Source: a virus. From it: DNA of 38,873 nt. The notes beneath the pieces were generated by a model, which searched no databases, was not told the DNA's origin, and worked only from the letters and a program-made list of their open reading frames with translations. Location of the stretch: IMG/VR virus record IMGVR_UViG_3300002138_000031, positions 1 through 38,873 of that record; one strand, given 5' to 3'. The position numbers were made by a program, and so were the translations under genes. Shown here one piece after another: positions 4,068-38,873 of the stretch (position 1 is the first letter of the stretch; each line of letters begins with the position of its first letter).

Positions 4068-5308
4068 GTTTAACAATAGAGCAAAGCGCAGAAGATTTTG
4101 CCCCCGTATTTAATCCGATGGACTTTATTGTTTCATCAGATAATCTAATAGGCAATACTTTCTTTTTCTACTTAGTGAAAGTACAAGATGACAACGGAGA
4201 TACTATTAGCCAACATAGATACCTACCACGTCCAGACAATTCGTTATTAAAGTTTGATGCCTCAAGGATTTTAGAAAAATATACTTCTTATGATATTAGC
4301 GGTATTCAATCTGGTACTACTGGTTTTAGGCGCACTTCTAATGTTTACAAAGAATATAGATTACAATTTGTAGAGGAAACGGGTAGTGTAGCGAGTGCGG
4401 TTACTAGTGGGGCTACCACATCAACATCTTACAAATATGCTTTTAATGGTGCGTTAGATGATGTTATAGATTATGATTCTGATTTATGGGTTATATCTGA
4501 TTCTACTTTATTACCTTCATTGCAGCAACAAAGATTCTTAACCGATCAAAGAGGCGCAAACATTAGAATAAAAACCACTGAAAGTTTTGAGTTAGGAATG
4601 ATGACAACCGCAGGGAGTGGGCAAGGCGTTAAAAAAATAGTTGTAAAAACTTATGATATATCTAATAGTTTACTTGGCACTTATGAAATAACAAACGCTT
4701 ATGCAAGTGGGGTTACAACGCCTGATTTATTTTTAAGTTGTTTAGTTGGTCCAGTTGATTTGAATAGTACTACTTTGTCTAGTGGTAGCCAACCGATCAT
4801 AACTTCTTCAGTCGACAAATACACTGTATATACACAAAGTAATGCAGGTGATATTACAAGTGAAACATTAACTTTTAAAATAGATACAAGTTGTAACTCA
4901 GGCATAAGAATACACTACCTTAACCGATTAGGGCGTATAGATTCATTTACTTTTAACTTTGCTAATGATAGCAGTTTAGAAGTAACCAAGTCAGCATTTA
5001 GAAAATTGTCAGGGTCATTCAGTGGATCCACATTTGCGAGAACAAGATATGAAAGCGAAAGTACTAATTTCTTTACTCAAGTTGATAAAAAGATTAAAGT
5101 AAGAACAGATTATATAAGCGACACAGAAGCGGAGTGGTTACAATATATGGTTAGCAGTCCTATACATTGGGGTATTATTGATGGGGAGTTAGTTAATTTA
5201 GTTTTAGATACTAAAAGCTATAATGTTCAAACCGCTGAAAAAAATAAAATATTCTTTATTGAATGTGATTTTACCTTTAGTAAATCAATATACAGACAAA
5301 GACTATGA
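4064..5308 (+). CDS. Virion structural protein (414 aa), possibly distal tail or baseplate
   Basis: Long Ser/Thr-rich ORF coupled by ATGA overlaps to both neighbours in the block that precedes the tape-measure-like gene. Function is inferred from context only. Confidence 0.4.
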   Translation: MSLTIEQSAEDFAPVFNPMDFIVSSDNLIGNTFFFYLVKVQDDNGDTISQHRYLPRPDNSLLKFDASRILEKYTSYDISGIQSGTTGFRRTSNVYKEYRLQFVEETGSVASAVTSGATTSTSYKYAFNGALDDVIDYDSDLWVISDSTLLPSLQQQRFLTDQRGANIRIKTTESFELGMMTTAGSGQGVKKIVVKTYDISNSLLGTYEITNAYASGVTTPDLFLSCLVGPVDLNSTTLSSGSQPIITSSVDKYTVYTQSNAGDITSETLTFKIDTSCNSGIRIHYLNRLGRIDSFTFNFANDSSLEVTKSAFRKLSGSFSGSTFARTRYESESTNFFTQVDKKIKVRTDYISDTEAEWLQYMVSSPIHWGIIDGELVNLVLDTKSYNVQTAEKNKIFFIECDFTFSKSIYRQRL

Positions 5309-9857: not shown

Positions 9858-9887
9858 AAAACCCCAATCAATCAAGACTGAGGTTTT
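9858..9887 (+). terminator. Weak intrinsic-terminator-like hairpin after the tape-measure gene
   Basis: AAAACCCCA ... TGAGGTTTT forms a 9-position stem with one C-A mismatch and a 12-nt loop. The U-run is only 4 nt. Confidence 0.3.
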
Positions 9888-13039: not shown

Positions 13040-14807
13040 ATATGTCTTTGGGGCGTTCCCATTATATGAGCATAAAACACCTGAGTTCAGGGAAAAAAGT
13101 GGCTATGTGTATGTTCAATATGGGGATGATAATGCTTACCCTGATTACCTTGTATATCTTTATAACCGTTCTGCAATTCATAACGCAATAGTAAACGGCA
13201 AAGCAAGATTTATAAATGGTTTAGGGTGGCAGGTATCTGATGGCATGGTAGATGGTAACTTGACTAACTTTATGTCAAGGGTAAACCCATCTGATGACTT
13301 AAACGAATTAACACAAAAAGCCATTTTAGATAGGTTAATCTTTGGAGGTTATGCTTTAAGAGTGTTATGGATGGGCGGCAAAATAGTAAATATATATCAC
13401 CAACCTTTTCAAACTATAAGAACCGACGCTGAGCAAACTACATTTTATATCTCTAAGCAATGGACCAAAGAACAAAGCACTAAGGCTAAGTTTAAGGCAT
13501 CAAAGAAAATGCCAGAAGATGTAAGAGCAATAGCCCCATTTGATCCAAATACAAGAAACGGGGAACAATTACTATACATTGCAGATTACAGACCGCAAAT
13601 CAAAGTTTATCCATTACCTGAATACTTACCTGCCAACGCAGGAATAGAAACAGATATAGAAATAGACAACTTTCATTTGAATAATATTAAATCGGGGTTT
13701 GCAGCAGGTAATATGATAGTGATGTATAATGGTAAACCTGCACCCGAAGAAATGAGAAAAGTAGAACAAGATTTAAAAGATAAGTTCTATGGTACTGATA
13801 ACGGAGGGGAAGGGATATTATACTTTGCTGAACTAAATGAGACACCCCCTTTAATTGTTCCAATGAGGTCTAATGAATTAGATAAACAATATGAGCAGTT
13901 AAGTAAATCAACTATTGAAAAGATATTTATAGGTCATAACGTAACAAGCCCTCAATTATTTGGGTTAAAGCCTGAAAGTGGATTGACAGACGGATGGTCT
14001 AATATGGATATAGCCTGGCAGTTGATGAACATAAACTATGTAGAGCCACGCAGAAGGCAAATAGAAAGCGATTTTAACTACATATTAAAGTTTGCAGGGT
14101 TTGATAAAAGGATTGAATTAAAACCATTACAAAGATTAAAAACTCCTATAAGTGAATCTATGTTAATGGCTAATCTAACAAGAGCAGAATTAAGACAATT
14201 AATAGATAGTAGTTTAGATATTGACTTAGCAGTCGAGCCTACTACTCAAATGGCTAAAAATGATTTAGGCAATTTTGAAAGTATATTGATAAATAGATTA
14301 TCTCAAATTGGCATAAGTGCTGATGGGTTAGAGTTTGCGGATATCAATATAGGTGAAGATGAAAAAAAGGTCCTTAATTATATTAAAGGCAAAAAAACTA
14401 TTGATATTAAAAAGGCTACCAAAGATTTAGGTATTGATGTAGCCAAAATAATGAAACGGCTAATTGAAAACAATGTAGTAGTAGGGGCGACTCAAGCAAG
14501 TGGTAATATAGACATTAAAGAAATCAACGTACCAAAAGACGAGCCAAATGTAAGTGTAGCTACTATGTGGAAGTACTCAGGACCTCAAGACGATAAGAAT
14601 AGAAGTTTTTGTGCGAAAATACTACAAATGAATCGTCTCTATACTAGAGAGGAAATAGACCAATTGAATAATGACATGAAAGAGTATAACCAAGATGTAT
14701 GGAAATATAGAGGCGGTTGGATGACCGTGCCTGATACGGATGGTTTACTTCATGTGCCTTATTGCAGACATACATGGAAACAAGTATTAGTTAAAAAAAG
14801 AAATTAA
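12999..14807 (+). CDS. Portal protein with C-terminal MuF/SPP1 gp7-like head-morphogenesis domain
   Basis: 602 aa and the only portal-sized candidate. The N-terminal part (AYPDYLVYLYNRSAIHNAIVNGKARFINGLGW) is portal-like. The C-terminus (NRSFCAKIL...YTREEIDQLNN...WKYRGGW...HVPYCRHTW) matches my memory of the MuF-like motif. Confidence 0.6.
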   Translation: MSENLQPEKSTKDKYVFGAFPLYEHKTPEFREKSGYVYVQYGDDNAYPDYLVYLYNRSAIHNAIVNGKARFINGLGWQVSDGMVDGNLTNFMSRVNPSDDLNELTQKAILDRLIFGGYALRVLWMGGKIVNIYHQPFQTIRTDAEQTTFYISKQWTKEQSTKAKFKASKKMPEDVRAIAPFDPNTRNGEQLLYIADYRPQIKVYPLPEYLPANAGIETDIEIDNFHLNNIKSGFAAGNMIVMYNGKPAPEEMRKVEQDLKDKFYGTDNGGEGILYFAELNETPPLIVPMRSNELDKQYEQLSKSTIEKIFIGHNVTSPQLFGLKPESGLTDGWSNMDIAWQLMNINYVEPRRRQIESDFNYILKFAGFDKRIELKPLQRLKTPISESMLMANLTRAELRQLIDSSLDIDLAVEPTTQMAKNDLGNFESILINRLSQIGISADGLEFADINIGEDEKKVLNYIKGKKTIDIKKATKDLGIDVAKIMKRLIENNVVVGATQASGNIDIKEINVPKDEPNVSVATMWKYSGPQDDKNRSFCAKILQMNRLYTREEIDQLNNDMKEYNQDVWKYRGGWMTVPDTDGLLHVPYCRHTWKQVLVKKRN

Positions 14808-15350
14808 ATGGCATTAATACCAGCGTTTATAGAAATAGATAGGCTAAAGGAATTTAGTGTAATAAGTGAAAACTTAGACAACAAACTATTAGAACCTACT
14901 TTAATAGCGGTCCAAGACTTATATTTAAGAGACGTTTTAGGGGCTGACTTGTATGCTGAGTTAATTACTCAAATCAATGCCGACACTACTACCGTACTTA
15001 ATCAAACTTTATTGAATGATTATATTGAGCCGTATTTAATAAATAAGGTAATAAGCGAGAGTGTAATTGATATAACTTATAAATTAAGGAATAAAGCAAT
15101 ACAGACAACTAATTCAGATTTTGGGCAAGTTGCTAATTTAACAGATTTAAGTAAAGTACAAGGTCAATATAACAACCGAGCCGAAGGATATAGAAAGTTG
15201 CTACAAGATTACTTATGTGATAATGGTAGCGATTACCCATTATACTGTCCTAAGAATACAGAGAGCAGTGTAGGCGGTTTTTATTTAGGCAATAAAAGAG
15301 TTGATCCAAGAGATTACTACTATGCAAATAAATATAGAGAAAATAAGTAA
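14808..15350 (+). CDS. Head-tail connector/adaptor (gp6-like), putative
   Basis: 180 aa immediately after the portal gene. The N-terminal pattern LLEPTLIAVQDLYLRDVLGADLYAEL recalls gp6-like head-tail connector proteins. Confidence 0.45.
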   Translation: MALIPAFIEIDRLKEFSVISENLDNKLLEPTLIAVQDLYLRDVLGADLYAELITQINADTTTVLNQTLLNDYIEPYLINKVISESVIDITYKLRNKAIQTTNSDFGQVANLTDLSKVQGQYNNRAEGYRKLLQDYLCDNGSDYPLYCPKNTESSVGGFYLGNKRVDPRDYYYANKYRENK

Positions 15351-23765: not shown

Positions 23766-23785
23766 ACACAAATAACCAAAATAAG

Positions 23786-23816
23786 AACCTCTACTTTAAT
23801 CGGTAGGGGTTTTTTA
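23786..23816 (+). terminator. Intrinsic terminator ending the long late transcription unit
   Basis: AACCTCTAC (23786..23794) pairs with GTAGGGGTT (23803..23811), 9 bp with one G-U and an 8-nt loop, followed by a T-run to about 23816. Confidence 0.8.
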
Positions 23817-23921: not shown

Positions 23922-23953
23922 TTTGTAAGTACGGATTATTGTATGTACGTTTG
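23922..23953 (+). promoter_or_regulatory. Early promoter P1 (-33 TTTG, -7 TAcgTTTG, then CAATACA)
   Basis: TTTG at 23922..23925 and TAcgTTTG at 23946..23953, with a 20-nt spacer. The TTGCAATA extension is shared with 26263 and 29490. A 7-bp inverted repeat (ATTGTAT/ATACAAT) brackets the -7 box. Confidence 0.6.
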
Positions 23954-23974
23954 CAATACAATTAAGAAATTAAC

Positions 23975-24130
23975 ATGACTAAAAAACAAATAAAAGATAG
24001 GGCTAATTTTAGATTTGATAAATTTGATTTAGCGAAGTGGAAAAAGAAAGCAAAAAAGCATAGTATTACACTTACTGAGTATTTAACTAGAAAGGCTAAC
24101 GATGATAATGATAAACATTTATTTATATGA
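23975..24130 (+). CDS. Small ribbon-helix-helix-like DNA-binding protein (51 aa)
   Basis: My own translation: MTKKQIKDRANFRFDKFDLAKWKKKAKKHSITLTEYLTRKANDDNDKHLFI. The xxFRFDxxxxxxWKxxAxxxxxTLTEYL pattern resembles RHH/CopG-like regulators. First gene after P1. Confidence 0.45.
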   Translation: MTKKQIKDRANFRFDKFDLAKWKKKAKKHSITLTEYLTRKANDDNDKHLFI

Positions 24131-24255
24131 CCTTAATAATAAATAAGCACCATAGTAGTTATTCATCTTTTATAGATGGTAAATACATAGAATCAAACAA
24201 CCTAGAAAACTTAATTAAATTAGCAAACAATTACAATAAAATCATAATAAAATGA
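24127..24255 (+). CDS. Mini-ORF (42 aa), translationally coupled
   Basis: My own translation: MTLIINKHHSSYSSFIDGKYIESNNLENLIKLANNYNKIIIK. ATGA overlaps at both ends (24127..24130 and 24252..24255). Confidence 0.3.
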   Translation: MTLIINKHHSSYSSFIDGKYIESNNLENLIKLANNYNKIIIK

Positions 24256-24563
24256 AAATTACAATTAAACAAACAATCGAAAAAGAAGTACAAGTACCTC
24301 ACTATTTTATGTCTGATGAAAAAGTTTATAGACACGATGGTGATGAAAAGTTTACCTGTATATATAATTACAATGCAATTAAAATAACAGTAATACGCAA
24401 AGGGGATGATGGTAGTATGATTAATTGGGATGATATTACTATTATATCACAGAATCAATTTAAAGCAGTCTTTTTAACCGCTATTGCAGAGATAGCAGGT
24501 TTTGAAATAGACACTTGGGAGGACTTAGAATCAGATGTACAAGCTAAATCAATAGGAAAATGA
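24252..24563 (+). CDS. Early hypothetical protein (103 aa)
   Basis: Track ORF in the ATGA-coupled early chain. Confidence 0.55.
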   Translation: MKITIKQTIEKEVQVPHYFMSDEKVYRHDGDEKFTCIYNYNAIKITVIRKGDDGSMINWDDITIISQNQFKAVFLTAIAEIAGFEIDTWEDLESDVQAKSIGK

Positions 24564-24970
24564 ATACAAAAATAATAATAGCATCTCAAACTAGTAATAA
24601 TGATTGGTGCAACATCAAAACCCCAGAAGGTAAAGAAATCTCTTTAAACCTTAAATCTAACCCTATAACCGCTAAATTAATTCAAGATGGGGCTAAAGAA
24701 GTTGAAGTAAACTTAGTTGATAAAAATGGTAAATTCTATGCTTGGGATATTAAAGAGCAAAAGAGTGGGGGTTTCGCTAAACTAACATCTGAGCAATTAG
24801 CAGAAAAAAAACAAAGAGAAGATCATACGCAAAGAATGATAGTAGCACAAAACTGCATGAGTAATGCAACTAACTTTTATTCTCAAAGTACTGGTAAAAC
24901 ATTTGTAGATATTGCAGCAATGGCAAAAGATATGTATGCGTGGGTAATGACAATAAGCAAAGATGAATAA
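24560..24970 (+). CDS. Early hypothetical protein (136 aa)
   Basis: Track ORF in the ATGA-coupled early chain. Confidence 0.55.
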   Translation: MNTKIIIASQTSNNDWCNIKTPEGKEISLNLKSNPITAKLIQDGAKEVEVNLVDKNGKFYAWDIKEQKSGGFAKLTSEQLAEKKQREDHTQRMIVAQNCMSNATNFYSQSTGKTFVDIAAMAKDMYAWVMTISKDE

Positions 24971-25310
24971 ATTAATATCAAACGAGCAAGTAGATAAGAT
25001 AGTTACTATACTTTCACAAGCAAAGGACAGACTATCTATGTGGAGTGATAATTATGCTACTGAGCATGGATTACCCCAAAAGTCAGAAGATACTATCTTA
25101 GATTCAAAACTAAGTAAGTTAATAGCAGAGATTCAAACCTTATCACCTGCATTGACTGGTAACTTTGGCAAATCAATAAGAGAACCTAAATGGGATAACT
25201 TAGAATCTGAGTATTTTAAAATCACAGGGGAAACAATAGCAATATCTAGCCAAGTAGAATATGAAACCTATACTTTAGAACTTAATAAAATTAATCACTT
25301 AAACGTATGA
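24963..25310 (+). CDS. Early hypothetical protein (115 aa)
   Basis: Track ORF that overlaps the neighbouring genes. Confidence 0.55.
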   Translation: MNKLISNEQVDKIVTILSQAKDRLSMWSDNYATEHGLPQKSEDTILDSKLSKLIAEIQTLSPALTGNFGKSIREPKWDNLESEYFKITGETIAISSQVEYETYTLELNKINHLNV

Positions 25311-25543
25311 ACGATTGGCAAAGATCATTAGATAAATATTTAACTAGTGAACCTAATGATGGGTTTAATAACTGGGTTGAATTATTAGTAGATGAACTTA
25401 ATGATGAGACATATTTAAAGCATGAAGATTGGTTATTATTTAGTAGCGAGTCTAGCGAATGGTTTGGAGAATTGTTTGATAGAGGATATAACCCCCAAAA
25501 AGGCGCAGAAATAATAGAAAGAATTTTAAAATATAAAATATGA
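25307..25543 (+). CDS. Early acidic Trp-rich hypothetical protein (78 aa)
   Basis: Track ORF with ATGA coupling. Confidence 0.5.
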   Translation: MNDWQRSLDKYLTSEPNDGFNNWVELLVDELNDETYLKHEDWLLFSSESSEWFGELFDRGYNPQKGAEIIERILKYKI

Positions 25544-25890
25544 TAATCATTCCTACAATAATAGAAAGTATAGCCACTAGAAAAGATAACACTATAAGCA
25601 TTAGATTAGCGTGTAATGAACTTGCCCCATCTGATGTAGGGGTTATTATGTCAATGCACAATAAATACGCTTACGCTGCAATTAAACCTGAAAATTTCAC
25701 AAAGACTGAATTAGATTTAATACAGAATTTAAAAGTAGATGAAAGTATAGGTAAAAGCCCAAGTCAAAGGTTAAGGGGTGTAATGTTTAGAAATTGGGAG
25801 AATGAGAATGAGGGTTATAAAGATTTTGAAGGTTACTACATTAATAAAATGGATCAAATCATAACACATTTAAAAAACAAATTACAATGA
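25540..25890 (+). CDS. Early hypothetical protein (116 aa)
   Basis: Track ORF with ATGA coupling. Confidence 0.55.
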   Translation: MIIIPTIIESIATRKDNTISIRLACNELAPSDVGVIMSMHNKYAYAAIKPENFTKTELDLIQNLKVDESIGKSPSQRLRGVMFRNWENENEGYKDFEGYYINKMDQIITHLKNKLQ

Positions 25891-26096
25891 AAACAACTGA
25901 ACAAATAAACGGCTTTGAAGTAAACATTGAATGGGAGTTTAAAGAAATAGTAGACACCCATGATAGCAACTGGGCAGAATGGTCGGTAATCGGTAAAAGT
26001 GAAGATGGCAGAAAATATCAAGGCACTTGCTTTGCTGATGCTACCTTCCCGACATCTCAATATGACAAACAAATTTTAAACATTGAAGAAATATGA
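25887..26096 (+). CDS. Early hypothetical protein (69 aa)
   Basis: Track ORF with ATGA coupling. Confidence 0.5.
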   Translation: MKTTEQINGFEVNIEWEFKEIVDTHDSNWAEWSVIGKSEDGRKYQGTCFADATFPTSQYDKQILNIEEI

Positions 26097-26236
26097 CACC
26101 ATCACAATTAAGCGTACAGACAATAGATTATTGCAATGTAATGAACTACAATGCTATCTTAGTTGCTAAATTAAAGCGTTTTCATCAAATACAATTAATC
26201 AGAATTAACCACAAAAAAACATTAAAAAGTAAATAA
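26093..26236 (+). CDS. Mini-ORF (47 aa) ending early operon 1
   Basis: My own translation: MTPSQLSVQTIDYCNVMNYNAILVAKLKRFHQIQLIRINHKKTLKSK. ATGA overlap with the previous stop. Confidence 0.35.
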   Translation: MTPSQLSVQTIDYCNVMNYNAILVAKLKRFHQIQLIRINHKKTLKSK

Positions 26237-26238
26237 TA

Positions 26239-26270
26239 TTTGTTTATTTAAATAAATAACTTTAATGTTG
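26239..26270 (+). promoter_or_regulatory. Early promoter P2 (-33 TTTG, -7 TAatGTTG, then CAATACA)
   Basis: TTTG at 26239..26242 and TAatGTTG at 26263..26270, with a 20-nt spacer. The palindrome TTATTTAAATAA lies between the two boxes. Confidence 0.5.
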
Positions 26271-26275
26271 CAATA

Positions 26276-26368
26276 CATTACGCCAAAATAAAAAAAACAT
26301 TTACCCCCTTTCTTCTCAATTATTCTTTACTGGCGTAATGGTATGCCGAGTGGATAAGGGGGTTTTTT
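26276..26368 (+). promoter_or_regulatory. Structured 5' leader: two crossing helices plus U-tract (attenuator/terminator-like)
   Basis: CATTACGCCA (26276..26285) is a perfect complement of TGGCGTAATG (26331..26340). ACCCCCTT (26303..26310) is a perfect complement of AAGGGGGT (26356..26363), followed by T6. An alternative local hairpin GGCGTA/TATGCC lies at 26332..26347. Confidence 0.6.
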
Positions 26369-26378
26369 ATAAAAAAAT

Positions 26379-27746
26379 ATGAACTACAAAGAATTTATAG
26401 AATCAAAAAAACACTCAATAGGTAATTTTGGATTTGATCCTAAATATATACCCGATATTGCGTTTGACTTCCAACAAGAAATTATTACAAGAGCTGTAAA
26501 AAAAGGTCGTATGGCTGTTTTTGCCGATACTGGACTAGGTAAAACATTAATACAATTAGCAATAGCTAAAAATATAATCGAAGAAACAAATAAAAAGGTC
26601 TTGATATTAACACCATTAGCAGTGGCATTCCAATTTATATTAGAAGCCAATAAACTAGGCATAGATGACATTGAATATTCTAAAGATGGTAATCACACCA
26701 AAAAAATAGTTATATGCAATTATGAGCGTTTACATTATTTCAATAGCGAAGATTTTGTCGGGGTTATTTTAGACGAAAGTTCTATATTGAAAAACTTTGA
26801 CGGCAAAATAAAAGGTCAAGTTACTGCATTTGTAAAGAAGATACCTTATAGATTTTTAAGCACTGCAACCCCAAGCCCTAATGATTTTATTGAATTAGGT
26901 ACAAGTTCAGAAGCTTTAGGGTATATGGGATATATGGATATGCTAGGTAAGTTTTTTAAGAACAATCAAAATAGCGTAGATTCAAACAATAGAAATATAG
27001 GCGAAAAGTTCTATTTAAAGCCACACGCTGAAACGGATTTTTTTGCATGGGTGAATCAATGGGCTATTATGGTAAAAATGCCTAGTGACTTAGGATTTTC
27101 AAATGAAAGATACCAGTTGCCAAATTTAATAGTGAATAAACACATTGTTAAAAATCAATCATTAATTGATATAAACGGTCAAGTGCAACTATTCACACCA
27201 ATGGCAAAGTCAATGACAGAGGTAAGGCACGAGCAAAAACAAACAGAAGAAAAAAGATGTGAAAAGGCTATCGAGTTGGCTGATGGTAAAACCTCTGTAT
27301 ATTGGTGCAACACTAACAACGAAAGTGCAATATTAAAGGCTTCTGATAAAGAAGCTGTAGAAATTATAGGCAGTCAATCAATAGATAAAAAAGAAGAAAT
27401 ACTTTTAGCGTTTGCAAATGGCGAAATTAAAAGACTTATAACTAAAGCTAAAATGACATCAATGGGGTTAAACTGGCAACATTGCAATCATTCAGTATTT
27501 TTCCCTACATGGTCATACGAGCAATATTACCAAGCAATTAGAAGGTTTTGGAGGTTTGGACAAACTAAAGACGTAACTATTGAAATGGTTTTATCCGATG
27601 GGCAAACAAGGGTAACTGAGGCTTTAGAACAAAAAACCAAAAAGGCTATTGAATTATATGAGAATTTGACAAAAAATGTCAATCAATCATTTGAAAACAA
27701 AAACAAAGAATTTAACAAACAAATAATAAAACCATCATTTATATGA
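26379..27746 (+). CDS. SNF2/DEAD-like superfamily 2 helicase
   Basis: Motif I FADTGLGKT, motif II VILDESSILKN, motif III LSTATPSPND, and a C-terminal helicase domain (TSMGLNWQHCNHSVFF ... QAIRRFWRFGQ). Confidence 0.85.
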   Translation: MNYKEFIESKKHSIGNFGFDPKYIPDIAFDFQQEIITRAVKKGRMAVFADTGLGKTLIQLAIAKNIIEETNKKVLILTPLAVAFQFILEANKLGIDDIEYSKDGNHTKKIVICNYERLHYFNSEDFVGVILDESSILKNFDGKIKGQVTAFVKKIPYRFLSTATPSPNDFIELGTSSEALGYMGYMDMLGKFFKNNQNSVDSNNRNIGEKFYLKPHAETDFFAWVNQWAIMVKMPSDLGFSNERYQLPNLIVNKHIVKNQSLIDINGQVQLFTPMAKSMTEVRHEQKQTEEKRCEKAIELADGKTSVYWCNTNNESAILKASDKEAVEIIGSQSIDKKEEILLAFANGEIKRLITKAKMTSMGLNWQHCNHSVFFPTWSYEQYYQAIRRFWRFGQTKDVTIEMVLSDGQTRVTEALEQKTKKAIELYENLTKNVNQSFENKNKEFNKQIIKPSFI

Positions 27747-29466: not shown

Positions 29467-29497
29467 TTTGATATTTCAAAAATAAATATTAGGTTTG
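29467..29497 (+). promoter_or_regulatory. Early promoter P3 (-33 TTTG, -7 TAggTTTG, then CAATAAG)
   Basis: TTTG at 29467..29470 and TAggTTTG at 29490..29497, with a 19-nt spacer. Confidence 0.55.
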
Positions 29498-29506
29498 CAA
29501 TAAGTA

Positions 29507-29594
29507 CTACCACATGATCAATAAACTTTATACATTAAAACCCCTTAATCAATCTAATGCCTGTGGTAGGGCTAAGTGCGAAAGAGGGGTTTTT
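29507..29594 (+). promoter_or_regulatory. Structured 5' leader, second copy of the crossing-helix plus U-tract architecture
   Basis: CTACCACA (29507..29514) complements TGTGGTAG (29562..29569). AAAACCCCT (29537..29545) complements AGGGGTTTT (29585..29593), with a U-run. The geometry matches 26276..26368 but the helix sequences differ. Confidence 0.6.
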
Positions 29595-29611
29595 ATATTT
29601 TTACACAAATA

Positions 29612-30283
29612 ATGGCTAAAAGATTTACTGACACATCTAAATGGAATAAACCCTTTGTAAGGGGCTTAGACGCACCTTATAAACTATTTTGGTTTTATAT
29701 ACTAGACGATTGCGACCATGCTGGGATTTGGCAAGTTGATATTGAAGTTGCTCAAATAAGAATAGGTTGTAATATAGATTTAATTTCAGCGTTAAAGGTT
29801 TTTAATAATCATATAAAAGTATTTGACGATGGGCAAAAATGGTTTATACCTGATTTTATAGACTTCCAATATGGTGAACTTAACCCTGCTAATCGTGTAC
29901 ATCAGTCTATTTTATTATTACATAAGAAATATAAAATTAAGCCCCTAACAAGCCCCTTACAAGGTGCTATAGATAAAGATAAAGACAAGGATAAAGATAA
30001 AGATAAAGACAGCGACAAAACTGAATTTCAACAAACATTTGATTCTTTTTTAGAAATGAGAAAGAAGATAAAAAAACCTGCAACCGATACCGCAATAGAT
30101 TTACTTAAAAAGAAACTGACTACACTTTCAAATAGTAATACAGATTTAGCGATAAAGATATTAAACCAATCAATTATTAATTCATGGCAAGATGTGTATG
30201 AACTTAAAGTAGATAAGCAAAAATCAATAGACTTAGCCCCGAAAAAATTAAGAGACATTAACATTGATGAAATCAAATATTAA
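29612..30283 (+). CDS. Replication initiation/organiser protein with DnaD-like C-terminal domain
   Basis: ATG 29612 (MAKRFTDTSKWNKPF...). The track's GTG at 29576 lies inside the leader hairpin. A (KD)n linker DKDKDKDKDKDKDKDSDK is followed by FDSFLEMRKKIKKP...ILNQSIINSWQDVY, which is DnaD-like. Unverified. Confidence 0.5.
   Translation: MAKRFTDTSKWNKPFVRGLDAPYKLFWFYILDDCDHAGIWQVDIEVAQIRIGCNIDLISALKVFNNHIKVFDDGQKWFIPDFIDFQYGELNPANRVHQSILLLHKKYKIKPLTSPLQGAIDKDKDKDKDKDKDSDKTEFQQTFDSFLEMRKKIKKPATDTAIDLLKKKLTTLSNSNTDLAIKILNQSIINSWQDVYELKVDKQKSIDLAPKKLRDINIDEIKY
29972..30018 (+). repeat. Hexanucleotide GATAAA-type microsatellite encoding a (DK)n linker
   Basis: gataaagataaagacaaggataaagataaagataaagacagcgacaaa, in frame within the replication protein. 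Confidence 0.85.
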
Positions 30284-35272: not shown

Positions 35273-35764
35273 GTGTCAAGGTCTCAAATACTTACCGTTT
35301 ACCACCATAAGACATTTATGAGTGCCTGTAAAAATATAGGTGGGCAAGATTGGGAAGATTTAAGAAATGAGGTAGTACTAAAGATGTATGAATTATCAGA
35401 TGAAAGATACACAAACATAAAAAACCATTTGGCATTTATGATAAGAGTGGCGCAAACCACTTCTATTGATAAGGCTAAAAAACACTCAAACAAGTATGAG
35501 TGGGTATTAAATAACCCTGAGTGGTTTTGCAATATTGCAGAAGTAGTAACCGATTTTGATAATGAGACTGATATAACGGCTAAATTAAAAAAAGACATTG
35601 ACGATCCAAAAAGACTTTACCATAGTAGAATATTTGTATATTGCAACATTTACGGAAGTATTAAAGAATGTTCAAGAAAGATAGGCATACCATATAAAGA
35701 AGTTAGGACCACATACAACGATTATAAATTATATTTAAAAAATTGGTTAAAGTCGCATATATAA
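35273..35764 (+). CDS. Sigma-70 family (ECF-like) RNA polymerase sigma factor, putative
   Basis: Region 2-like WEDLRNEVVLKMYE...HLAFMIRVAQTTSIDKAKKHS and region 4-like SRIFVYCNIYGSIKECSRKIGIPYKEVRTTYNDYKLYLKNWL. Confidence 0.55.
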   Translation: MSRSQILTVYHHKTFMSACKNIGGQDWEDLRNEVVLKMYELSDERYTNIKNHLAFMIRVAQTTSIDKAKKHSNKYEWVLNNPEWFCNIAEVVTDFDNETDITAKLKKDIDDPKRLYHSRIFVYCNIYGSIKECSRKIGIPYKEVRTTYNDYKLYLKNWLKSHI

Positions 35765-36717
35765 AGAACGCAAGTCCTGGAGTTAATTACCATAGGCTTG
35801 AGGTACCTTTTGCTTTAATAGCAGAAGATGAACGGTTTAAGGTGTTTGAAGTTCAAATTGCTACGGATGAATATGACGTAATAGTATTTAATCGCATACC
35901 GTTCCAACCATTAAGCACACTTCAAAGACTTAAAAAACAAGGCATTAAAATAATATTTGATATTGACGATTACTGGATGAGACCGATATGGCATACTAAC
36001 TTTTCAAACCAATGGGAGTTAGAATTTTGTGCAGAGATAATTAAGTTTTTAAGACTTGCAGATATTGTTTGGGTGTCAACACCTTACCTTCAACAAAAGA
36101 TAGCAGAAATGCTAATAGAATCAGTTTTGATCCCTAATGCTTTGCTATATGAGGAAGCCCAATTTAATAGGGTTAATATAGAACGTGACACTATTAATTG
36201 TGGGTGGGTAGGTGGCATAGCGCACCATAGAGACATAAATTTACTTACTGAGCCGTTAAAACAACCGCACAAAGCTAAAATGGTATTGGGTGGTGTAAGT
36301 GATATTAATAATAAATATTGGCAATATATTGGGCAAGTATTAGGCGGGGGCAAAATAAAGAACGTTCAAATACTTACACACGAAAATCAATACAACTATG
36401 GGTTTATGTATAATTATTTAGACATAGTTTTACTGCCTTCTTTCAATGATACTTATACCATGTGTAAATCTAATTTAAAAATATTAGAGGCAGGGGCGCA
36501 TAATTTACCAGTTATTACTAATGGGGTTATTTATAAAGAAGTAACCGATAAAATGGGCATAAGGGTAAATGGTCAAAGGGATTGGGTTAAAGGTATTAAG
36601 AAACTAACAGAAAGTAAAAGAATGAGAACTGAGTTAGGTTTGGCACTTGGTGAATATACCAGAGAAAAGTACGACATCTTTAAGATAAACGAAAAAAGAA
36701 AACAAACGATATTATGA
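35743..36717 (+). CDS. Glycosyltransferase, GT-B (group 1-like), putative
   Basis: TTG start overlapping the sigma gene end. GWVGGIAHHRDINLL, and the C-terminal CKSNLKILEAGAHNLPVITNG resembles the GT1 nucleotide-sugar binding motif. Confidence 0.5.
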   Translation: MVKVAYIKNASPGVNYHRLEVPFALIAEDERFKVFEVQIATDEYDVIVFNRIPFQPLSTLQRLKKQGIKIIFDIDDYWMRPIWHTNFSNQWELEFCAEIIKFLRLADIVWVSTPYLQQKIAEMLIESVLIPNALLYEEAQFNRVNIERDTINCGWVGGIAHHRDINLLTEPLKQPHKAKMVLGGVSDINNKYWQYIGQVLGGGKIKNVQILTHENQYNYGFMYNYLDIVLLPSFNDTYTMCKSNLKILEAGAHNLPVITNGVIYKEVTDKMGIRVNGQRDWVKGIKKLTESKRMRTELGLALGEYTREKYDIFKINEKRKQTIL

Positions 36718-36938: not shown

Positions 36939-37150
36939 CACCTGACCAAAAAGAACGCATTAAAGAAGGTATGGAAGCCTACCTTTACTATGAGGCAAAT
37001 GGTATATCTGTATATAAAACACCTATGATAGACGCAGCACAAAAAGTAAAGAAGGAGTTAGGAATGAGTAACATTAGTGTTTGCAAAGGTTGTTTAGACG
37101 AAATCCACACATACATGGCAGAAATTTATAAAATATATGAAAATAGTTAA
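36935..37150 (+). CDS. Hypothetical protein (71 aa from ATG 36935)
   Basis: The in-frame ATG at 36935 forms an ATGA overlap with the previous stop. The track's earlier start at 36899 is less likely. Confidence 0.45.
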   Translation: MTPDQKERIKEGMEAYLYYEANGISVYKTPMIDAAQKVKKELGMSNISVCKGCLDEIHTYMAEIYKIYENS

Positions 37151-37913
37151 AGTATCACACTCAGGGAATACGGGCGATATTATTTATTCACTCCCATCGT
37201 TAAAAGAATATTGCCATCAGCATGACTGCAAAATAGAATATCTTTTAAAATTAGACCGACCTTCAAACTTTAATTTAATTAACCACCCACTAGGCGATGT
37301 TATGTTAAATGAAACAATGGCTAATATGCTTAAACCTTTATTAGAACATCAGTCTTATATTGATAGCGTAAGATTATTAGGCAAGTTTGAAAATGAGAAA
37401 GTAGACTTTGACTTAGATTCATTTAGATCCGAAAATAAAAACCTTTCAGCAGGTAACATAGCTTTATGGAATCAGATAGTATACCCACAACTTAGAGGCA
37501 AGATACATGAAATTAGCATAGATGCCACCCCAATAGAAAATGATTACATTATAATTAACAGAACAATCCGTTATAATAACCCTTTAATTGATTACACTAT
37601 ACTAGAGGGCAATGTAAAGTTTGTAGGAGTAGAAAGTGAGTTTAAGATAATGAAGGCTATTAACCCAAGTGTAGAACATTTGCAAGTTAAAGACTTTTAC
37701 GAATTGGCTAAGTATATAGCAGGGTGTAAGTTATTTGTAGGTAATCAATCAATGGCTTATTCAATAGCCGAAGGGCTAAAGGTTAAGAGAGTATTGGAGC
37801 AGTACTATGCTGCCCCTAATGTAATACCTCAAGGCGGGGATTGTTATGTGTTCCAAACGCAAAAACAATTTGACAATTTAATAAATAACTATATATTTGC
37901 ATTAGATAAATAA
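37137..37913 (+). CDS. GT9 (heptosyltransferase)-like glycosyltransferase, putative
   Basis: N-terminal VSHSGNTGDIIYSLPSLKEY and C-terminal ELAKYIAGCKLFVGNQSMAYSIAEGLKVKRV parallel the GT9 motifs (lGD.....P.l..l; l.vgnDSG..HlAaAlg.P). Confidence 0.45.
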   Translation: MKIVKVSHSGNTGDIIYSLPSLKEYCHQHDCKIEYLLKLDRPSNFNLINHPLGDVMLNETMANMLKPLLEHQSYIDSVRLLGKFENEKVDFDLDSFRSENKNLSAGNIALWNQIVYPQLRGKIHEISIDATPIENDYIIINRTIRYNNPLIDYTILEGNVKFVGVESEFKIMKAINPSVEHLQVKDFYELAKYIAGCKLFVGNQSMAYSIAEGLKVKRVLEQYYAAPNVIPQGGDCYVFQTQKQFDNLINNYIFALDK

Positions 37914-37915
37914 AT

Positions 37916-38569
37916 ATGCCACAAAACAATTATTTTAAAACAGAAGAAGGTAGTTACAAATCAGATTTATTTGGCAATCCTAGTCAAATTTATTTAGATA
38001 ACTACTGGAGTAATCCAATCCGTTCAACTATTGATGAGCAGATTTATAATGTAAAAGATAAAAACAAACTTGTTAAAAAGGAACTAACAAAGATATATCC
38101 TAAGTCTTATTTAGAGATTGGGTGCGCACCTGGTTTATTATTGGGGGAAATGAGTGAGATAGGCAAGGCAACGGGTATTGAAGTAGACCCTAGATATAAA
38201 GAACAACTTCAAAAGTATTCAAAGAGTGCTGAGTTATCGTTTGGTTTCTTCCCTGAGATTAGTAAAGATTGGGATAGTGCTAAGTTTTCTAATATAGTTG
38301 CCTTAGATGTATTTGAACACGTTGAGGATGGTAATGCCTTTTTAAAGGAGTGTAATAGACTTTTAGTTAAAGGAGGTGTATTAGTAATCCAATGCCCTAT
38401 AATCTTACAGGATGGCAAAACAGAGGCTACGATGTTTAATGAAAGGGAACATATATGGTACTATTGTATAGAACACTTAAATTATATGTTAATAGATAAC
38501 GGGTTTAAGGTAAAGAACATAGATAGGTTTATAGTAGGGCATGAACAAATAAGTGCAAAGAAAATATAA
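37916..38569 (+). CDS. Class I SAM-dependent methyltransferase
   Basis: Motif I YLEIGCAPGLL, then NIVALDVFEHVEDGNAFLKECNRLLVKGGVLVIQCP (Methyltransf_11/23-like). Confidence 0.8.
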   Translation: MPQNNYFKTEEGSYKSDLFGNPSQIYLDNYWSNPIRSTIDEQIYNVKDKNKLVKKELTKIYPKSYLEIGCAPGLLLGEMSEIGKATGIEVDPRYKEQLQKYSKSAELSFGFFPEISKDWDSAKFSNIVALDVFEHVEDGNAFLKECNRLLVKGGVLVIQCPIILQDGKTEATMFNEREHIWYYCIEHLNYMLIDNGFKVKNIDRFIVGHEQISAKKI

Positions 38570-38873
38570 TGGCAGAAACAAGTAAAGCATACGAGCGCAG
38601 AGTAAAAGAAGGATTCTTTGAAAAGTACGTTAAGGGTAAAGTAATAGACATTGGCGTGGGTAGAATAGATACACACGATGGCGCAGACCCATTGACTCCA
38701 ACTTGTGATACATGGGATAAAGACAATGGTAATGCAGAAATAATGCAAAGCGTATCAGATGAAACCTATGATACCGTTTATAATTCTCATTTATTAGAAC
38801 ACCTTAACCAACCTATCCAAGCAATAAGAAATTGGTTTAGAATATTGGCACAAGGTGGGCATCTAATTATTTG
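38569..38873 (+). CDS. Class I SAM-dependent methyltransferase, 5' part (continues at 1..348 across the circular junction)
   Basis: ATG 38569 lies in a TAATG overlap with the previous stop. My own translation: MAETSKAYERRVKEGFFEKYVKGKVIDIGVGRID...YNSHLLEHLNQPIQAIRNWFRILAQGGH. The ORF is open to the window end. Confidence 0.8.
   Translation, partial: MAETSKAYERRVKEGFFEKYVKGKVIDIGVGRIDTHDGADPLTPTCDTWDKDNGNAEIMQSVSDETYDTVYNSHLLEHLNQPIQAIRNWFRILAQGGHLII
38803..38873. repeat. Direct terminal repeat, copy 2
   Basis: Identical to 1..71. Confidence 0.95.

Follow-up and report, generated by a model that had tools for sequence, protein, structure and literature searches.

The put RNA of phage HK022 is a cis-acting, protein-independent antiterminator RNA that forms two hairpins downstream of the early promoters. 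HK022 carries two put copies (putL and putR) with covarying stems, and put lies upstream of separate terminators. Loop-loop pairing has, to our knowledge, not been described for HK022 put. Loop-loop or loop-strand pairing over 6-10 nt decides the fate of a leader in the plasmids pT181 and pIP501 with their countertranscripts, in the RNA I/RNA II system of ColE1, and in phage P4 with its CI RNA. Tertiary structure is coupled to an expression signal in the cobalamin riboswitch, through the kissing loop L5-L13, and in the fluoride and preQ1 riboswitches, through pseudoknots. As regards the temporal control of transcription in phages of Bacteroidota, we are aware of almost nothing that is known.

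The leader described here lies in the window, i.e., the whole stretch of 38,873 nucleotides that was analysed (IMG/VR record IMGVR_UViG_3300002138_000031); it is a complete phage genome, assembled as a circle with bases 38803-38873 identical to bases 1-71, and has a G+C content of 33% and all genes on the + strand. No tRNA or tmRNA was found in it. Among cultured phages, Baltic Flavobacterium siphophages are its nearest relatives; the helicase shares 83.5% protein identity with its counterparts in vB_FspS_hattifnatt9-1 and the snusmum phages, with 76.6% nucleotide identity over part of the gene. The early region consists of nine small ORFs from 23975, the helicase and DNA methyltransferases from 26379, and a replication O-like protein, a DnaC-like loader, a DnaA-C-like protein and others from 29612. 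The leader in front of the last of these operons (copy 2, 29467-29611) has the following anatomy.

29467..29470, + strand: -33 element TTTG of the leader-2 promoter, read directly, 19 nt upstream of the -7 box
29490-29497, + strand: -7 element TAGGTTTG, extended as TTGCAATA to 29502; predicted transcript start near 29502
29507..29514, + strand: seg1 CTACCACA, single-stranded 5' partner of the pseudoknot, approximately +6 to +13 of the RNA
29515..29536, + strand: A-rich linker with ACATT at its end, directly 5' of the terminator stem
29537-29545, + strand: seg2 AAAACCCCT, 5' arm of the terminator base stem (arm 29537..29546), pairing with 29584-29593
29559..29572, + strand: apical hairpin GCC-seg3-GGC, from constrained folds
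29562-29569, + strand: seg3 TGTGGTAG, the whole 8-nt apical loop, closed by GCC/GGC
29585-29593, + strand: seg4 AGGGGTTTT, 3' arm of the terminator base stem (arm 29584..29593)
29590..29602, + strand: U-run (T5, ATA, T5), with T-runs at 29590-29594 and 29598-29602
29612..30283, + strand: replication initiation O-like/DnaD-like protein (PHROG 678, E 5e-11), the first gene behind copy 2

A predicted terminator inside a pseudoknot

The four segments follow one another in the order seg1 < seg2 < seg3 < seg4 and pair 1 with 3 and 2 with 4, so that the two helices are interleaved and have no bases in common. The base stem formed by seg2 and seg4 comprises 9-10 bp and is followed by T5, as in the sequence of an intrinsic terminator; together with the U-run it has the form of one, and transcript release at this site is predicted. 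Because the apical loop seg3 pairs with seg1, this terminator is embedded in an H-type pseudoknot, which is the predicted fold of the copy 2 leader. The gaps between seg1 and seg2, seg2 and seg3, and seg3 and seg4 are 22, 16 and 15 nt, respectively, and 18 nt separate the end of the stem from the start codon. These gaps, together with the promoter, the four segments, the T-run and the ATG at 29612, agree exactly with a first-pass annotation of this DNA. That annotation had also described a four-segment layout that recurs in the genome and acts at the RNA level; recurrence and RNA level both stand, but the pairings are those of a pseudoknot or loop-loop kiss and not of alternative hairpins. A classical four-segment attenuator with alternative hairpins is excluded here, as the two pairings compete for no bases.

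The seg1:seg3 duplex of copy 2 has a calculated energy of -10.7 kcal/mol, and 8 bp of complementarity to seg3 were reached in 126 of 20000 shuffles of the 5' part. The nested fold alone is unremarkable in stability (z = -1.07). The -7 element of Flavobacterium johnsoniae is numbered T-12 A-11 .. G-5 (PMC6847099); by this numbering the RNA of copy 2 would start near 29502, hence seg1 would begin at about +6, and a transcript ending in the U-run would be ~92-96 nt long.

A second copy and a leaderless promoter

Another copy of the leader precedes the helicase. It is listed below with the first early promoter of the genome and with an ordinary terminator for contrast.

26263..26368, + strand: leader copy 1, with the -7 box TAATGTTG at 26263-26270
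26276-26285, + strand: seg1 of copy 1, CATTACGCCA
26303-26310 with 26356-26363, + strand: stem of copy 1, 8 bp, then T6
26331-26340, + strand: seg3 of copy 1, TGGCGTAATG
26363-26368, + strand: T6 of copy 1; ATG at 26379
26379..27746, + strand: helicase, the first gene behind copy 1
23946..23958, + strand: first early promoter TACGTTTGCAATA, without leader; ATG at 23975
23785..23812, + strand: ordinary compact terminator with an 11-bp stem and a 6-nt loop

In copy 1 the seg1:seg3 duplex amounts to about -13 kcal/mol, the complement was reached in 23 of 20000 shuffles of the 5' part, and the nested fold (z = -2.87) is better than that of copy 2. Its RNA probably starts near 26275, which would place the beginning of seg1 at about +2. 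The existence of copy 1 had been recognized in the earlier annotation; its gaps, given there as 17, 20 and 15 nt, were found to be 16, 21 and 18 nt, the mismatch arising because the segments had been cut at different limits. Copies 1 and 2 are the only long-range perfect stems with a T-run in the whole window. As had also been noticed, the helices of the two copies differ in sequence and remain complementary, and the first early promoter (23946, ATG at 23975) has the common promoter extension and no leader. This extension, TTGCAATA, is common to all three early promoters on the + strand (23951, 26268 and 29495). The promoter of copy 2 is of the Bacteroidetes type. The promoter consensus of F. 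johnsoniae is TTTG/TANNTTTG (PMC6847099), from which the three early promoters depart slightly, with G at -10/-9 or G at -8.

A family of kissing leaders

Related loci were gathered by a helicase search of viral contigs (80 loci taken from ~600 matches), by a search with the replication protein (80 more loci) and by a scan of species-representative genomes (33 loci, nearly all of them metagenome-bin contigs). The loci were thus gathered around two replication genes, and the link of the leaders to replication operons is therefore partly a sampling effect. At least about 45 distinct copies were found in Flavobacterium-type phage contigs, and 38 distinct leaders with different helix sequences were listed. 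A second search, anchored on the promoter box and not requiring a T-run, gave 60 candidates. In addition, the interior of each terminator hairpin was compared with the 70 nt upstream in the window and 81 related loci (235 terminators), with three controls (upstream sequence reversed, 70 nt downstream, expectation from shuffles).

Complementarity score >= 16: observed 23/235; reversed 3; downstream 2; shuffles 1.9
Complementarity score >= 14: observed 59/235; reversed 13; downstream 14; shuffles 7.9

The layout of the family follows from the listed leaders. An exact TAnnTTTG box is present upstream in 28 of the 38, against a background of 4.9%, and lies 9-17 nt before seg1 in 26 of these 28. 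In most relatives a short 5' hairpin presents seg1 in its loop, so that the contact becomes a loop-loop kiss; seg1 is flanked by a stem of 5 bp or more in 71% of cases, compared with 22% in shuffles. The two copies of the window represent a minority subtype without this 5' hairpin, to which L007, L029, L071 and L135, among other leaders, belong as well. The linker of the relatives measures 15-35 nt (most 20-27), is A-rich and often ends in AAAACAUU. The base stem of the terminator has 6-18 bp, followed by an apical stem of 3-6 bp, and the hairpin frequently includes a purine 3x3 internal loop (GGA/AAA). Seg3 lies inside the apical hairpin loop in 33/38 leaders, and full complementarity of 6-nt loops occurs in some copies (e.g., GGUCAG/CUGACC). 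At least 5 T occur within the 8 nt after the stem in 44 of the 60 candidates (background 6.3%). The start codon follows 7-24 nt past the stem in 34/38 leaders, a distance that leaves no room for a further promoter. Predicted RNA lengths were 79-103 nt in 25 of the 28 leaders that were measured.

No match to Rfam 15 was found for the whole window at the gathering score or for the canonical copies in hattifnatt9-1, and E-value scans of both window leaders returned chance-level matches only. MAFFT was unable to align the family. Two covariance models built on canonical copies (R1 and R2) are narrow, with 8 matches at E <= 5e-10, from which it follows that a canonical core exists; with filters off, R2 places copy 1 as the best window match (20.3 bits, E 0.085) and misses copy 2. 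The models thus confirm the canonical core and are unfit as a family detector. Full-text literature searching yielded no account of such leaders, and a large screen of structured RNAs in viruses does not mention Flavobacterium, Bacteroidetes or kissing loops. The same screen lists many terminator-containing candidates. The leader represents a large uncatalogued family in Flavobacterium-type phages, whose members head replication and recombination operons.

Covariation of the helices

A structure-guided alignment of 23 leaders and 27 pairs (A2) was used to examine the helices. In this alignment, 22 of the 27 pairs change on both sides, including all of the lettered kiss pairs (9/9), and the covariation score is 0.692, against 0.130 for shuffled and 0.03-0.07 for slid controls. 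Since the proposed pairs themselves served to construct A2, its figure of 98.7% paired positions is circular; the information lies in the range of pair types. The only near-constant positions in the family are the G-C first kiss pair (19/23) and the A-rich linker motif.

Close relatives give individual examples. The copy 3 leaders of hattifnatt9-1 and snusmum6-1 are 90% identical overall, and their seg1/seg3 pairs, GTGAGACG/CGTCTCAC and GTGGAACG/CGTTCCAC, respectively, differ by a double compensatory change. L014, L018 and L024 have common flanks and the seg1 sequences GGTCGAATC, GGTAGAAGC and GAGGTAGTATC, each with a fitting seg3. The leader at 8425 in L029, situated before the orthologue of ORF 29612, shares with copy 2 the context gcc-seg3-ggctaagt; five of the eight kiss positions are changed between the two, and all five changes are compensated. 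The RNA-level function assumed in the first-pass annotation is strongly borne out by this comparative covariation. Diversifying selection on the kiss, of the sort that a specificity or immunity determinant would show, is excluded, as close relatives differ by 7.3% at the kiss and by 9.4% elsewhere. Pairing in trans between the copies of one genome is excluded too: their kiss sequences are unrelated and not cross-complementary.

Distribution and genes behind the leaders

Three copies each are present in hattifnatt9-1 and snusmum6-1, where they precede the helicase, an HNH endonuclease and an operon containing a primase or helicase. Both phages also have separate compact terminators that are used at operon ends, and in both a compact terminator lies directly upstream of the copy 3 promoter (14274-14295 in hattifnatt9-1). 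The upstream operon thus does not depend on the terminator of copy 3 for its end. The Flavobacterium columnare myophage FCV-1 carries one canonical copy (35875-35979) among otherwise compact terminators. LS06-2018-MD05 has no clear leader copy, yet its helicase is 80% identical. The coexistence of compact terminators, the single copy in FCV-1 and the case of LS06-2018-MD05 exclude a general terminator shape of these hosts or phages. L117, a contig from a Bacteroidales bin, has a copy with a 10-bp kiss, and L095, a contig of 50% GC with a sigma-70-like promoter, shows the same architecture with no convincing ORF after the copy. A prophage or immunity context was rejected: the genome scan gave almost only metagenome-bin contigs and no prophage in cultured Flavobacterium.

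The genes behind the leaders encode helicases (12), homologues of ORF 29612 (9), HNH endonucleases, a primase/VirE-like protein, a DnaB-like helicase, RecT-like proteins and small unknown proteins. No structural genes were found behind leaders in this sample, which is anchored on replication genes and hence biased. In the whole genomes of the window phage, hattifnatt9-1, snusmum6-1 and FCV-1, no clear copy is associated with the structural module; each stands before a helicase, endonuclease or replication gene or before a small gene without annotation. In the window itself, copy 1 heads the helicase/methylase operon and copy 2 the replication operon. From 29612 onward no strong + strand terminator was found until 23785, across the circular junction; leader 2 may thus control access to most of the rest of the genome and, with it, the switch to late genes. 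Operon 3 includes a possible ECF-type sigma factor (35273-35764).

Proposed function

The anatomy of the leader, its conservation, the covariation of its helices and its position relative to promoter and gene are direct observations. From these we infer that it is probably a promoter-proximal attenuator with a pseudoknotted terminator, releasing a short RNA of ~90 nt. Polymerases arriving from the local promoter or from the upstream operon would reach the terminator before the start codon; most of them would release the short RNA, again of ~90 nt, and a controlled fraction would continue into the operon. Transcription reaches seg3 ahead of seg4, which allows the kiss to form prior to stem closure, and the kiss would thus be placed to set or regulate the read-through fraction. 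Closure of the stem after the kiss would create a true pseudoknot in which the linker crosses the stem, and this crossing may explain the constrained length of the linker. The kiss might slow stem closure and so favour read-through, provide a recognition surface or stabilise the released RNA; it has no overlap with the terminator stem, and the sequence is silent on whether it helps or hinders termination. A tentative and rather doubtful extension of this proposal is that the family constitutes a new class of self-contained RNA switch acting on intrinsic termination. The kiss would then decide whether the terminator closes in time, and competitors for the 5' loop, or the speed of folding, would tune termination without a dedicated antiterminator protein. 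The released, kissed RNA of ~90 nt may equally well be a new type of phage small RNA.

Other readings place control elsewhere. The first-pass annotation had proposed that operon 1 (23975-26236) encodes a read-through factor, and scans of the early ORFs against Pfam, PHROG and NCBIfam found nothing in support of it. In this model the leaders would be default-off terminators and an operon-1 protein would modify RNA polymerase or bind the leader in the manner of lambda N/Q, which we consider rather unlikely; the corollary that the helicase/methylase and replication operons are delayed-early appears doubtful to a similar degree, and a two-tier temporal cascade as such is plausible. Operon 1 has the same promoter extension and lacks a leader, and both hattifnatt9-1 and snusmum6-1 show the same succession: first an operon without a leader that encodes small unknown proteins, then replication operons headed by leaders. 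This gene order supports the model in three phages. A constitutive promoter directly before a terminator is also the lambdoid PR'-tR' arrangement (PMC7547250). ORF 23975 encodes a very basic protein of 51 aa with 15 K+R, and the AAAACAUU linker and the purine 3x3 internal loop could be a protein-recognition surface. However, the nine ORFs have no Pfam match above threshold and no PHROG family, and a scan covering operon 1, the genes that open operons 2 and 3 and the majority of the remaining early-region ORFs detected no Q-, N- or NusG-like domain. Of the nine, orf25540 alone has homologues elsewhere, in 8 loci, and their presence does not track the leaders; neither does that of the DnaA-C-like ORF 31029. 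When all early ORFs were compared with the loci by tblastn in search of a co-occurring protein factor, only the helicase and the methylase were present everywhere. The family spans phages with unrelated early genes, and the kiss would be superfluous for an antiterminator directed at polymerase. A further reading makes the leaders chiefly genes for small stable RNAs that act in trans, for example as a decoy of a host protein, with operon expression as leak-through. A promoter and a terminator ~80-100 nt apart are the standard layout of such genes, the leader has a single self-consistent fold with no competing alternative, the copy in L095 has no convincing ORF behind it, and the short PR' transcript of lambdoid phages acts in trans (PMC7547250). 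This reading is nevertheless clearly unlikely, since the variable loops are buried in the kiss and leave no conserved exposed pairing sequence, almost all copies end 7-24 nt before an operon that has no other promoter, and the copies within one genome differ in sequence.

It is very unlikely that the fold serves as a 5' stabiliser of the mRNA and a Shine-Dalgarno-free translation platform with little real termination. Most copies have the 5' end of the RNA in paired form, 7-24 nt separate the hairpin from the ATG, and Flavobacterium mRNAs, which are without Shine-Dalgarno sequences, favour unstructured A-rich regions before the start (PMC6847099); against this, the U-run is strongly enriched, and a stem with a G+C-rich base and 5-8 U directly behind it is what marks an intrinsic terminator. 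This base resembles that of the operon-end terminators of the same phages. Ribosome-mediated attenuation would operate through a leader ORF (29514-29612, 32 codons, with its stop overlapping the ATG) whose translation blocks the hairpin. Copy 2, L029 8425 and L007 do have an ATG directly after seg1 and an open frame to the gene start, but an ATG ORF runs through the terminator in only 11/38 leaders and the peptides are unrelated, which excludes leader-peptide control as the general mechanism. Moreover, copy 1 has ATA where copy 2 has ATG, an AT-rich spacer can be expected to contain stop codons close to the gene start, and the helices are not mutually exclusive, so that this reading appears extremely unlikely. 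The chance that the complementarity is accidental around an ordinary terminator, or that the element acts as DNA (an origin or a cruciform), is next to negligible. The leaders adjoin replication genes, in an AT-rich region with inverted repeats; nevertheless, the complementarity is enriched over the controls, close relatives carry compensatory changes, the position relative to the promoter is fixed, the element lies on one strand only with the U-run on that strand, and there are three copies per genome.

If confirmed, the leaders would form a widespread class of leader RNA with a distinctive structure, occurring in phages of Bacteroidota, Flavobacteria included. With a leader of ~95 nt, many natural compensatory variants and cultured phages, the effect of the kiss on termination is directly testable. 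Use of the fold as a modular expression part in Bacteroidota is also conceivable.

Comparison with known systems

The leaders would share with the lambdoid PR'-tR'-Q system an active promoter directly before an intrinsic terminator, a short RNA (6S/StxS in the lambdoid phages) and a dependence on read-through (PMC7547250). Lambdoid Q is loaded via a DNA site at the promoter, without an RNA tertiary fold, whereas the leaders have a covarying pseudoknot or kiss; moreover, the Q system heads the late operon, whereas several leaders occur per genome and head replication operons. No Q-family protein was found with Pfam, PHROG and NCBIfam in the early-region ORFs tested, a result that applies to detectable homology only. 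Compared with lambda N/nut, no box sequence is conserved across the family, and the small basic ORF 23975 has no significant family match. The leaders of the window resemble HK022 put in that an RNA that would act in cis follows directly after early promoters, occurs in two copies and has covarying stems; put contains no terminator, however, and the leaders contain one.

Covarying pairing in a nascent leader that precedes replication genes is likewise a feature of the plasmid and P4 kissing systems. There, two separate RNAs pair, whereas both partners of the leader kiss are in one RNA. The leader kiss neither frees nor blocks an arm of the terminator, and its positions evolve no faster than the flanks. 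As in the cobalamin, fluoride and preQ1 riboswitches, pairing links a loop of the expression-platform hairpin to an upstream element. The invariant ligand-binding core of riboswitches contrasts with the near absence of invariant nucleotides in the leaders; all leader helices vary, which sets the family outside the riboswitches. The element is kin to promoter-proximal attenuators and leader terminators, and there is a real chance that a tertiary contact here controls intrinsic termination in a new way.

Genome ends and early promoters

The first and last 71 bases of the window are identical (1-71 = 38803-38873), and the window is therefore a complete genome, assembled as a circle. A methyltransferase-like ORF starts at 38569 and runs over the circular junction to ~348. 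The three early promoters (at 23946, 26263 and 29490) share the extension TTGCAATA; the whole window contains 11 occurrences of it, where 4.1 would be expected. None of the three fits the host -7 consensus TAHHTTTG exactly: 23946 has G at -9, 26263 has G at -8, and 29490 has G at both -10 and -9.

ORFs with sub-threshold matches

23975-24130: first early ORF, 51 aa, strongly basic (15 K+R)
35273-35764: possible ECF-type sigma factor ORF, 163 aa, in the leader-gated replication operon (operon 3)
37137-37913: ORF with a Cas6b-like N-terminal match, 258 aa

The only matches of the first early ORF are NikA/MbpA-like (ribbon-helix-helix type), all of them sub-threshold. Several ECF-type sigma-factor families match the 163-aa ORF weakly: NF040705 at E 1.2e-6, a Bacteroidetes ECF sigma family at E 0.002 and phrog_1740 at E 0.003, every one far under the curated cut-offs. 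The ORF may encode a late sigma factor. The 258-aa ORF matches the Pfam Cas6b N-terminal domain marginally below threshold (E 7.5e-5; 23.2 bits versus a cut-off of 25), and PHROG, NCBIfam and PDB sequence searches gave no match. The Cas6b match may be a chance hit; if true, a hairpin-binding RNase fold would be of interest in a phage that carries structured leaders.

Possible transcription beyond the second leader

15244-15278, plus strand: weak terminator candidate
9859-9886, minus strand: compact terminator-like hairpin, 11-bp stem including G-U pairs, then a T-run

From the replication operon ATG at 29612 over the junction to 23785, simple terminator scans found no strong plus-strand terminator, the weak candidate at 15244-15278 being the sole find. 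Read-through of copy 2, the leader preceding this operon, could in principle continue into the replication genes and all late genes. The hairpin at 9859-9886 is good on the minus strand only; the plus strand has C-A mismatches where the minus strand has G-U pairs. It is present despite the genome having no convincing minus-strand genes.

AUGAAAA downstream of seg1

In leaders of the subtype without a 5' hairpin (L007, L029 at 8425, L071, L135 and window copy 2), AUGAAAA often lies directly 3' of seg1, the segment that kisses the terminator loop; copy 2, with its AUG at 29514, reads AUGAUCAAUAAA. This AUG starts an open frame that reads through the terminator, and window copy 1, which precedes the helicase gene, has AUA in its place. 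The motif may reflect common descent instead of a leader peptide.

Leaders in other genomes

L095 ~4700-4830 (plus-strand coordinates), minus strand: leader-like element
L085 (Flavobacterium phage FCV-1) 35875-35979: canonical kissing-loop leader, between gp51 and gp52

Contig L095 has 50% GC and was assigned to Pseudomonadota by binning; its leader architecture matches that of the Flavobacterium-type copies. A sigma-70-like promoter (TTGAAC .. CATAAT) is followed by a 5' hairpin (CUGUCA/UGACAG) whose loop holds a 10-nt seg1, a 10-bp kiss (GCCGGGAAGC/GCUUCCCGGC) and a terminator with U7; no convincing ORF was found behind the leader. The leader design may extend beyond Bacteroidota phages. In the FCV-1 leader the 5' hairpin has 9 bp, the kiss is formed by GTAGAGAG/CTCTCTAC, and there is an internal loop GGA/AAA; FCV-1, a cultured F. 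columnare myophage, would offer a handy experimental system.
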